DNA of 64,000 nt from Shigella phage SF1-1, in sequence record PQ571307; one strand, written 5' to 3'. Made by a program: the position numbers and the translations under genes. Shown one piece after another: positions 38,377-38,955 of this stretch. Numbering within the stretch: position 1 is the stretch's first letter; every line of letters starts with the position of its first letter. Below the pieces are notes generated by a model that worked only from the letters and a program-made list of their open reading frames with translations, searched no databases and was not told the DNA's origin.

Positions 38377-38955
38377 ATGGTTTATGGTCACGGTGTTTTT
38401 GATGGGAGCATTACTGCAAGATCTCCTGAAGGGGTTATGCACCCTGCTTATATGAAATGGATGGCAATGTTGGGAAGGTGTTATTCATCTTGCCAACAGG
38501 CAAGAGATGTCGTTTACCATGGAGTGACGGTTTGTGAAGAGTGGAAGCTGTTTTCCAACTTCTACTCTTGGTTGGAAACTTGGGACGACTGGGAAAACTC
38601 GGAACTCGATAAGGATCTTATGGGAGGGGGAGTCTACTCCCCTGATACTTGCTTAATGATTTCTGGAAATCTTAATAAGTTTTTAGCCTACAGAAAGAAG
38701 TCAGGTCAAATGGTAGGATGTAATTATGAGAAGGATCGTAAGAAGTATAAGGCCCATATTAAAATCGGAGGACGTATCATAACACTCGGTCGTTTCGATA
38801 CGGAACTCCAAGCACATCTTTGTTGGTTGAAAGCTAAAGAAGAACAGCTTACAAAGTTTTTTGAAACAGAAGATCAAAGAGTTGTTCCACATCTTAAAAC
38901 ATTGTATAACGATATGCTTGAACATATTGAACAACGTAAGGAGTGGACTCGGTAG
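38377..38955 (+). CDS. AP2-domain DNA-binding protein, probable free-standing homing-endonuclease-like gene
   Basis: YKAHIKIGGRIITLGRFDTELQAHLCWLKA matches the AP2 pattern found in phage homing endonucleases; sits directly after the polymerase gene. Confidence 0.4.
   Translation: MVYGHGVFDGSITARSPEGVMHPAYMKWMAMLGRCYSSCQQARDVVYHGVTVCEEWKLFSNFYSWLETWDDWENSELDKDLMGGGVYSPDTCLMISGNLNKFLAYRKKSGQMVGCNYEKDRKKYKAHIKIGGRIITLGRFDTELQAHLCWLKAKEEQLTKFFETEDQRVVPHLKTLYNDMLEHIEQRKEWTR

Follow-up and report, generated by a model that had tools for sequence, protein, structure and literature searches.

The open reading frame (ORF) at positions 38377-38955 of the window, by which we mean the whole 64,000-nucleotide stretch of phage DNA analysed here, is probably a free-standing IPA-HNH homing endonuclease gene lying after the DNA polymerase gene and ahead of a further small gene. 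We put the probability of this reading at roughly two in three, with cleavage and target inferred from sequence. A preliminary description, made from the letters alone, had already named the ORF as a candidate free-standing homing endonuclease gene. Homology to the phage ICP1 protein Gp59 and the presence or absence of the gene in related phages support that proposal, with DNA cleavage and the target site standing as predictions. Together, the presence/absence pattern, the deletion remnants, the age of the alleles, a patch of substitutions at the left junction, the loss of a hairpin and the lack of flanking repeats argue for intron-less homing, rather than for transposition or for a conserved regulator.

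The DNA polymerase locus

The window comes from a phAPEC8-like coliphage of the genus Phapecoctavirus (Stephanstirmvirinae). Escherichia phage vB_EcoM_UP17 (UP17) is 98.8% identical across all of window positions 37300-40200, and dozens of further Phapecoctavirus genomes match the same region at 97-99%. The family-A DNA polymerase gene occupies positions 35750..38347 on the plus strand and encodes a protein of 865 aa (Pfam PF00476, E 1.4e-13; PHROG 17, E 2.7e-111). This polymerase is colinear with that of phAPEC8, and an Rfam scan of window positions 35000-40000 found no family, which bears out the earlier remark that the window polymerase contains neither an intron nor an intein.

The endonuclease ORF, taken from a mechanical ORF list, lies on the plus strand and comprises 192 codons followed by TAG. 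Its ATG is separated from the polymerase stop codon by 29 nt, and with the Pfam and PHROG assignments of the upstream gene this confirms the placement of the ORF directly 3' of a DNA polymerase gene. A ribosome-binding site, AAGGAG, can be read from the sequence at 38366-38371 on the plus strand, 5 nt before the ATG. At the right junction (38953..38966, plus strand), the TAG stop codon of the endonuclease gene overlaps a TAGGAG ribosome-binding site, which is followed by the ATG (38964) of a small plus-strand gene at 38964-39155; this gene is a homologue of phAPEC8 gp080 and its product belongs to PHROG 25582. A scan for promoters and terminators revealed nothing above chance around the endonuclease gene or between the polymerase gene and the ORF. 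Since no promoter or terminator is predicted in between, the endonuclease gene is likely co-transcribed with the polymerase. The GC content of the gene equals that of the neighbouring genes, and the 64-kb window holds neither a paralogue of the ORF nor any tRNA gene.

Two inteins and a group I intron occur in this polymerase gene among relatives. Anhysbys and iGC_PHA_EC001 carry a 245-aa intein (CVPMD...ITITGN|C) in motif A, between Tyr582 and Cys583, with the LAGLIDADG-like motif FLEGFLIADGY (L003:1700-2434, and the same region of L002). In nieznany, a 324-aa intein that also has a LAGLIDADG-like motif is located in motif B, between Gly633 and residue 634 (L004:2526-3497). The empty intein sites in the window fall at 37495|37496 and 37648|37649. 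A group I intron (Rfam RF00028, 61.6 bits, E 4.7e-15; L007:2675-3036) interrupts the polymerase gene of Klebsiella phage KP2025. Within this phage group the polymerase gene forms a hotspot of selfish elements, and its 3' end, which adjoins the endonuclease gene, is presumed to be the homing target region.

Several smaller observations concern the same locus. The exon just upstream of the 324-aa intein in nieznany is unusually divergent (window 37268-37642), and the KP2025 record annotates two separate 'DNA polymerase' CDSs. On the other side of the polymerase gene, the gene at window 34956-35750 (PHROG 5172, E 3.8e-110) ends where it abuts the GTG start codon of the polymerase. Its product weakly matches DNA methyltransferases and is annotated as an N6-adenine methyltransferase in nieznany. 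A different, 396-bp gene (L005:899-1294) takes its place in Justusliebigvirus.

Domains, family and putative active site of the protein

When searched alone, the 192-aa protein matched no family in Pfam or NCBIfam, AP2 and HNH included, and matched PHROG 953 'HNH endonuclease' with an E value of 3.4e-68. A database search with the protein retrieved 78 homologues, and an alignment of 41 of them served as a profile, which matched AP2 domains among the PDB entries, those of WRI1 (E 4.7e-6) and AtERF1. Pfam AP2 was also matched individually by 11 of the 41 homologues (best 5.4e-8), and none of the 41 matched an HNH family in Pfam or NCBIfam. The single-sequence score of the window protein against AP2 (PF00847) falls below the gathering score, with matches present at the level of the profile and of the fold. 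An AlphaFold2 model of the protein is very confident (pLDDT 95.4, pTM 0.86). The AP2 and nuclease-like domains are resolved solely by family-level profiles and the predicted structure.

The AP2 DNA-binding domain covers aa 113-165 (38713..38871, plus strand) and in the model consists of strands 115-118, 123-130 and 133-140 and a helix at 143-164. The AP2-type motif noted in the preliminary description, YKAHIKIGGRIITLGRFDTELQAHLCWLKA, corresponds to residues 123-152, and its identification is upheld by the profile of 41 homologues, the 11 individual Pfam matches and the predicted fold. The AP2 domain presumably supplies target-site recognition.

The N-terminal domain (aa 1-108; 38377..38700, plus strand) is predicted to be an atypical, His-less HNH (His-Me finger) nuclease. 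In the model it comprises a small helical bundle, a strand at 75-78, a 14-residue loop, a strand at 93-96 and a helix that starts at 97 and extends to 103 in the full-length model and to 108 in the domain model. The strands and helix of aa 75-108 form a beta-beta-alpha motif, predicted with high confidence, for which the best solved structural match is the HNH restriction enzyme PacI. The profile of 41 homologues did not retrieve PacI from the PDB sequences. The earlier suggestion that a nuclease domain occupies the N-terminal half is supported by the beta-beta-alpha fold, the PacI match and the homology to Gp59; the putative domain is a non-canonical one that gives no Pfam or NCBIfam HNH match. 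A double N-domain occurs in single proteins of 571 aa (P0113), 399 aa (P0129), 390 aa (P0176) and 258 aa (P0094), and two copies per protein would fit a dimeric nuclease.

IPA-HNH homing endonuclease genes were defined from ICP1 gp59, gp115-116 and gp209, and their products combine an atypical N-terminal HNH-like domain, recognised by HHsearch alone, with a C-terminal AP2 domain (Barth, Dunham & Seed 2023, PMC10448857). ICP1, Barbaviruses and Flaumdraviruses are rich in such genes, of which 29% adjoin DNA polymerase genes (PMC10448857). BLASTP aligned the window protein with ICP1 Gp59 (L008:27261-28076) at 32% identity over 150 aa (E 9e-18), and the two have the motif LDKD...VY.P..C....N in common. 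Gp59 is longer (272 versus 192 aa) and has an N-terminal extension of ~45 aa that is absent from the window protein. In ICP1, gp59 lies directly 3' of the polymerase gene gp58 (L008:24501-28079), the product of which is 26% identical to the window polymerase (E 7e-56). The association of the polymerase 3' end with this endonuclease gene spans very distant phages.

A tblastn search of 50,697 phage records located the family at 2568 places in 1501 records, and many phage genomes carry multiple copies. The hosts of these phages include Vibrio (825 records), Rheinheimera (115) and Pseudomonas (66), in agreement with the lineages named in PMC10448857. The window phage is a Stephanstirmvirinae phage of E. 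coli, and in this it differs from the ICP1, Barbavirus and Flaumdravirus phages for which the family was named. Apart from its homology to Gp59, the window gene encodes an N-domain too divergent for Pfam HNH_3 together with a C-terminal AP2 domain, and it is free-standing, adjoins an essential gene and is variably present among related phages. Its orthologues in nieznany, alia, VEcB and PHB05 already bear the RefSeq label 'HNH endonuclease', and the family was described in 2023; thus, the gene is a further member of a known family. As judged from its sequence, it is an ordinary element of the IPA-HNH type. The main gain is one of annotation, since the UP17 protein, 99.5% identical to that of the window and labelled 'hypothetical', becomes assignable to the family.

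The putative active site sets the protein apart from canonical HNH enzymes. The catalytic His that canonical HNH domains carry at the end of the first beta strand is absent from the window protein, and Lys79 stands in its place, as does a Lys in 229 of 232 family members. W28, R34, F62, W65, D78, K79, D80, Y87, C92 and N100 are invariant among 41-48 homologues. We also searched 1.84 billion cluster representatives (one per 50%-identity cluster) with the N-domain using phmmer, which returned 8468 representatives at E<=1e-3 and 1788 at E<=1e-10. In 232 aligned, diverse domain instances, D78, K79, D80, Y87, C92 and N100 were each kept in at least 229. On the plus strand of the window, the D78-K79-D80 codons lie at 38608-38616, the Y87 codon at 38635-38637 and the N100 codon at 38674-38676.

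PacI is an HNH enzyme that likewise lacks the catalytic His; a Tyr in the loop between its two strands takes over, and an Asp and an Asn, one of each, coordinate its single metal ion (PMC5714182, PMC4081073). The window protein has the same set, with Asp78/Asp80, a helical Asn100 and, in the loop, the invariant Tyr87. The catalytic centre is therefore most likely PacI-like and His-less, with putative residue equivalences that derive from the predicted fold and from conservation. The likeness to PacI (PDB 3m7k/3ldy; His-Me finger group 20) is confined in other respects: identity to the window protein is 14%, and PacI has two Cys4 zinc sites, lacks an AP2 domain and acts as a homodimeric restriction enzyme that cuts TTAATTAA.

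Phages, cyanobacteria and ciliates have canonical HNH-AP2 homing endonucleases (Magnani et al. 2004), which resemble the window gene in their nuclease-plus-AP2 logic and selfish lifestyle. That group, which includes I-HmuI relatives, is His-Me finger group 2 (HNH_3); its members carry a D-H...N...N/H motif and are recognised by Pfam HNH_3, whereas the window protein has Lys for His and matches no such profile. In addition, hhalign gave no alignment (probability 0.2%) between the family profile and the canonical HNH-3 endonucleases gp80 and gp28 of ICP1.

The missing His also allows another reading, in which the HNH-like fold has no catalytic activity and the protein binds specific DNA sequences as a regulator or repressor, for example of host or competitor genes or of the polymerase operon. 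It would then be comparable to the SMAD MH1 domain or to phage AP2 repressors such as the CasPRs, and an accessory, dispensable role would account for its patchy distribution. Lys79 in place of the catalytic His and the lack of an HNH profile match are in line with such a role, and some His-less groups of His-Me fingers can be pure DNA binders (PMC5714182). Phage AP2 proteins that purely silence transcription do exist (CasPRs, bioRxiv 10.64898/2026.02.23.707548), and Barth et al. warn that homing is not inferable from sequence alone (PMC10448857). However, a pair of acidic residues and a Lys, a Tyr and an Asn, grouped around the beta-beta-alpha motif, hardly vary among the 232 members; this looks like an active site and matches the Asp/Asn/Tyr chemistry of PacI. 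We therefore regard a pure regulator as unlikely.

The more specific idea of a CasPR-type anti-CRISPR repressor is rejected. CasPRs, which silence cas genes, consist of AP2 joined to a Cys-rich CapR zinc domain (bioRxiv 10.64898/2026.02.23.707548). The window protein resembles the AP2 or HEG-derived repressors of the CasPR/CapR type as a small phage protein, and it resembles CasPRs in its use of AP2 for sequence-specific DNA binding. It has no CapR-type Cys cluster, however; the D-K-D/Y/N signature stands instead of a CapR domain, the fold of the N-domain differs and the phage is a virulent coliphage.

In our searches of the accessible literature, we found no biochemical activity or cleavage assay of any IPA-HNH member. 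Experiments in the coliphage system could provide the first demonstration of DNA cutting by IPA-HNH proteins, and could show whether an active site of Lys and Tyr can stand in for the HNH His. On sequence grounds, a very large phage family with a clear PacI-like, His-less signature would be of modest interest.

Distribution and divergence of the gene

The gene is sporadic among close relatives. It occurs in ~6 of 64 Phapecoctavirus records, namely the window, UP17, 536P1, nieznany, iGC_PHA_EC001 and EF1-1, and is absent at exactly this site from phAPEC8, anhysbys and ~58 other Phapecoctavirus records (at least 95% nucleotide identity). In phAPEC8 and anhysbys, the polymerase stop codon is followed by a 49-nt spacer and then by gp080. 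Related phages thus differ at this very locus, as the homing proposal had led one to look for, most Phapecoctavirus genomes lacking the ORF. The preliminary description had held that carriage by all orthologous phages without a nuclease motif would point to a transcription factor, and this combination is not what we found.

In Justusliebigvirus, the sister genus, the same position is taken by a gene of 72-78% identity. It is intact in 28 of 56 records, the remaining ones matching with 70-78% coverage. We inspected two of the gene-lacking Justusliebigvirus records for deletion, phi92 (L009:966-1100) and outra (L010:993-1115), and both hold internal-deletion remnants in which the leader, the ATG and the final 60-70 nt survive. 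These deletions indicate that the gene is dispensable, and they are the degeneration phase expected of homing elements. The outra remnant is annotated as a 40-aa hypothetical protein. Beyond these genera, Klebsiella phage KP2025 carries a 62%-identical endonuclease gene 3' of its polymerase. The empty site of Phapecoctavirus has leader-like sequence in common with the endonuclease gene, so that some of the presence/absence within the genus could be loss rather than gain.

The alleles are far more divergent than the DNA around them. The three Phapecoctavirus alleles of the window, nieznany and iGC_PHA_EC001 are 80-84% identical in nucleotide sequence, with dS ~1 (~1.0 between the window and nieznany alleles), whereas the adjacent 600 nt of the polymerase 3' end are 96-98% identical among the same three phages. 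The dN/dS ratio is 0.06-0.18 in informative allele pairs and reaches 0.40 only in the near-identical alia-ECGD1 pair, which shows that the protein is under purifying selection. Moreover, the alleles are mosaic; that of iGC_PHA_EC001, for example, has its C-terminus in common with the window allele and its middle with the Justusliebigvirus alleles. Old alleles under purifying selection within young flanks require horizontal transfer, and the history of the gene is indeed incongruent with that of its flanks. Such divergence in closely similar flanks, together with the multi-copy occurrence of the family across phage records, also fits a selfish mobile gene better than it fits a regulator.

These data bear as well on whether the gene is instead an ancestral accessory gene of an rV5/ICP1-like replication module, inherited vertically and lost by deletion, that is now non-mobile and possibly a decaying former endonuclease gene. 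Such a history would account for the same position after the polymerase in Justusliebigvirus, KP2025 and even ICP1, for the gene-lacking alleles of phi92 and outra, which are clearly deletions, and for the leader-like sequence kept at the Phapecoctavirus empty site. Nevertheless, a dS of ~1 among three alleles whose flanks differ by 2-4% is impossible by descent together with those flanks, and the alleles are mosaic between genera. The intact ORF and its low dN/dS indicate that the gene is not decaying, and loss by deletion is the expected second half of a homing cycle. Purely vertical inheritance is therefore distinctly improbable, and we retain the homing endonuclease as the preferred reading.

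Junctions, the empty site and a proposed homing pathway

The left junction is marked by a 30-nt patch (38335..38364, plus strand) that spans the final 13 nt of the polymerase gene together with the leader. A mismatch map against phAPEC8 and anhysbys revealed no difference in 38177-38334 and then 12 substitutions in 38335-38364 (binomial P about 1e-12). All changes in the polymerase part are synonymous: the window reads GCG AGT TGC CAT TAG and the empty allele GCA TCC TGT CAT TGA, both of which encode A S C H stop, or WASCH* with the unchanged preceding TGG codon. The Ser codon of the patch varies among phages (AGT, AGC, TCC, TCT, ACA, ACT). The patch would either confer immunity to cleavage or mark where the imported cassette crossed over on the left. 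Beyond these 30 nt, the mismatch map contained no co-conversion tract or divergence gradient.

Identity with the empty-site genomes resumes at 38953, giving an insertion of ~620 bp with sharp boundaries that lie in homologous sequence. Such a discrete, sharply bounded insertion might suggest a transposon-like or integrase-mediated element. However, we found neither target-site duplications nor terminal inverted repeats around the gene, and the 579-bp ORF fills the insert, leaving no room for a transposase or integrase. Boundaries in homologous sequence are moreover what recombination predicts, and a transposon-like or integrase-mediated origin is thus extremely improbable.

The empty allele contains a stable palindromic hairpin, TTTTATAAGGGGC-TTCT-GCCCCTTTATA, in the spacer of gene-lacking Phapecoctavirus genomes (phAPEC8, L001:2549-2597), with a predicted energy of -20.7 kcal/mol (z -2.97). 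This hairpin abuts the ribosome-binding site of gp080 and lacks a U-tract; it may serve in RNA stability, in translational control or as the endonuclease target. The insertion interrupts it, and it is absent from the whole 64-kb window.

Free-standing homing endonucleases of the T4 type, the GIY-YIG Seg and HNH Mob proteins, spread by intron-less homing between essential genes and cause marker exclusion in co-infection (discussed in PMC10448857). The window gene resembles them in being intron-less, located between essential genes and sporadic among close relatives. The T4-type enzymes belong to other nuclease families and use other DNA-binding modules. Experiments have proven both cleavage and homing for several of these enzymes, whereas for the window gene they are predictions.

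By our preferred reading of a homing endonuclease, the cycle would begin in a mixed infection with a gene-lacking relative, when the AP2 domain would bind a specific sequence at or near the empty site, that is, the polymerase 3' end and the intergenic hairpin. The N-terminal beta-beta-alpha domain, as its fold and conservation suggest, would then cut the empty site. A single metal ion would be held by Asp78/Asp80 and Asn100, and the invariant loop residue Tyr87, perhaps with Lys79, would take the part of the HNH His as in PacI. Recombinational repair from the gene-bearing genome would copy the gene into the cut genome, as the population patterns suggest. The gene-bearing allele would itself be protected, since the insertion removes the palindrome and since the leader and the final codons of the polymerase gene differ from those of the empty allele.

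A broader reading is tentative and rather less likely than its negation. IPA-HNH proteins, that of the window included, would form a very large phage-borne branch of the His-Me fingers in which the catalytic His has given way to a PacI-like loop residue, Tyr87, acting with Lys79, and in which Asp78 and Asn100 are the metal ligands. They might act as PacI-like dimers on a palindrome, namely the TATAAGGGGC-TTCT-GCCCCTTTATA hairpin found in the empty allele only, so that the insertion would destroy its own target.

The locus provides a clean natural system of near-identical coliphages that differ in whether they carry the gene and in whether their polymerase gene contains either of two inteins or a group I intron. 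It also marks a recombination-prone, dispensable site beside an essential gene, which is of use to phage engineering and therapy genomics.

A further nuclease gene varies in the same module. In nieznany, an extra canonical zinc-finger HNH gene (HHCDY...LCPLHHEAWH; L004:7351-7845) lies between the gp085 homologue and a tail protein gene, where the window has a 56-nt spacer alone (41479-41536). The zinc-finger HNH gene is the second nuclease gene of that module to show presence/absence polymorphism.
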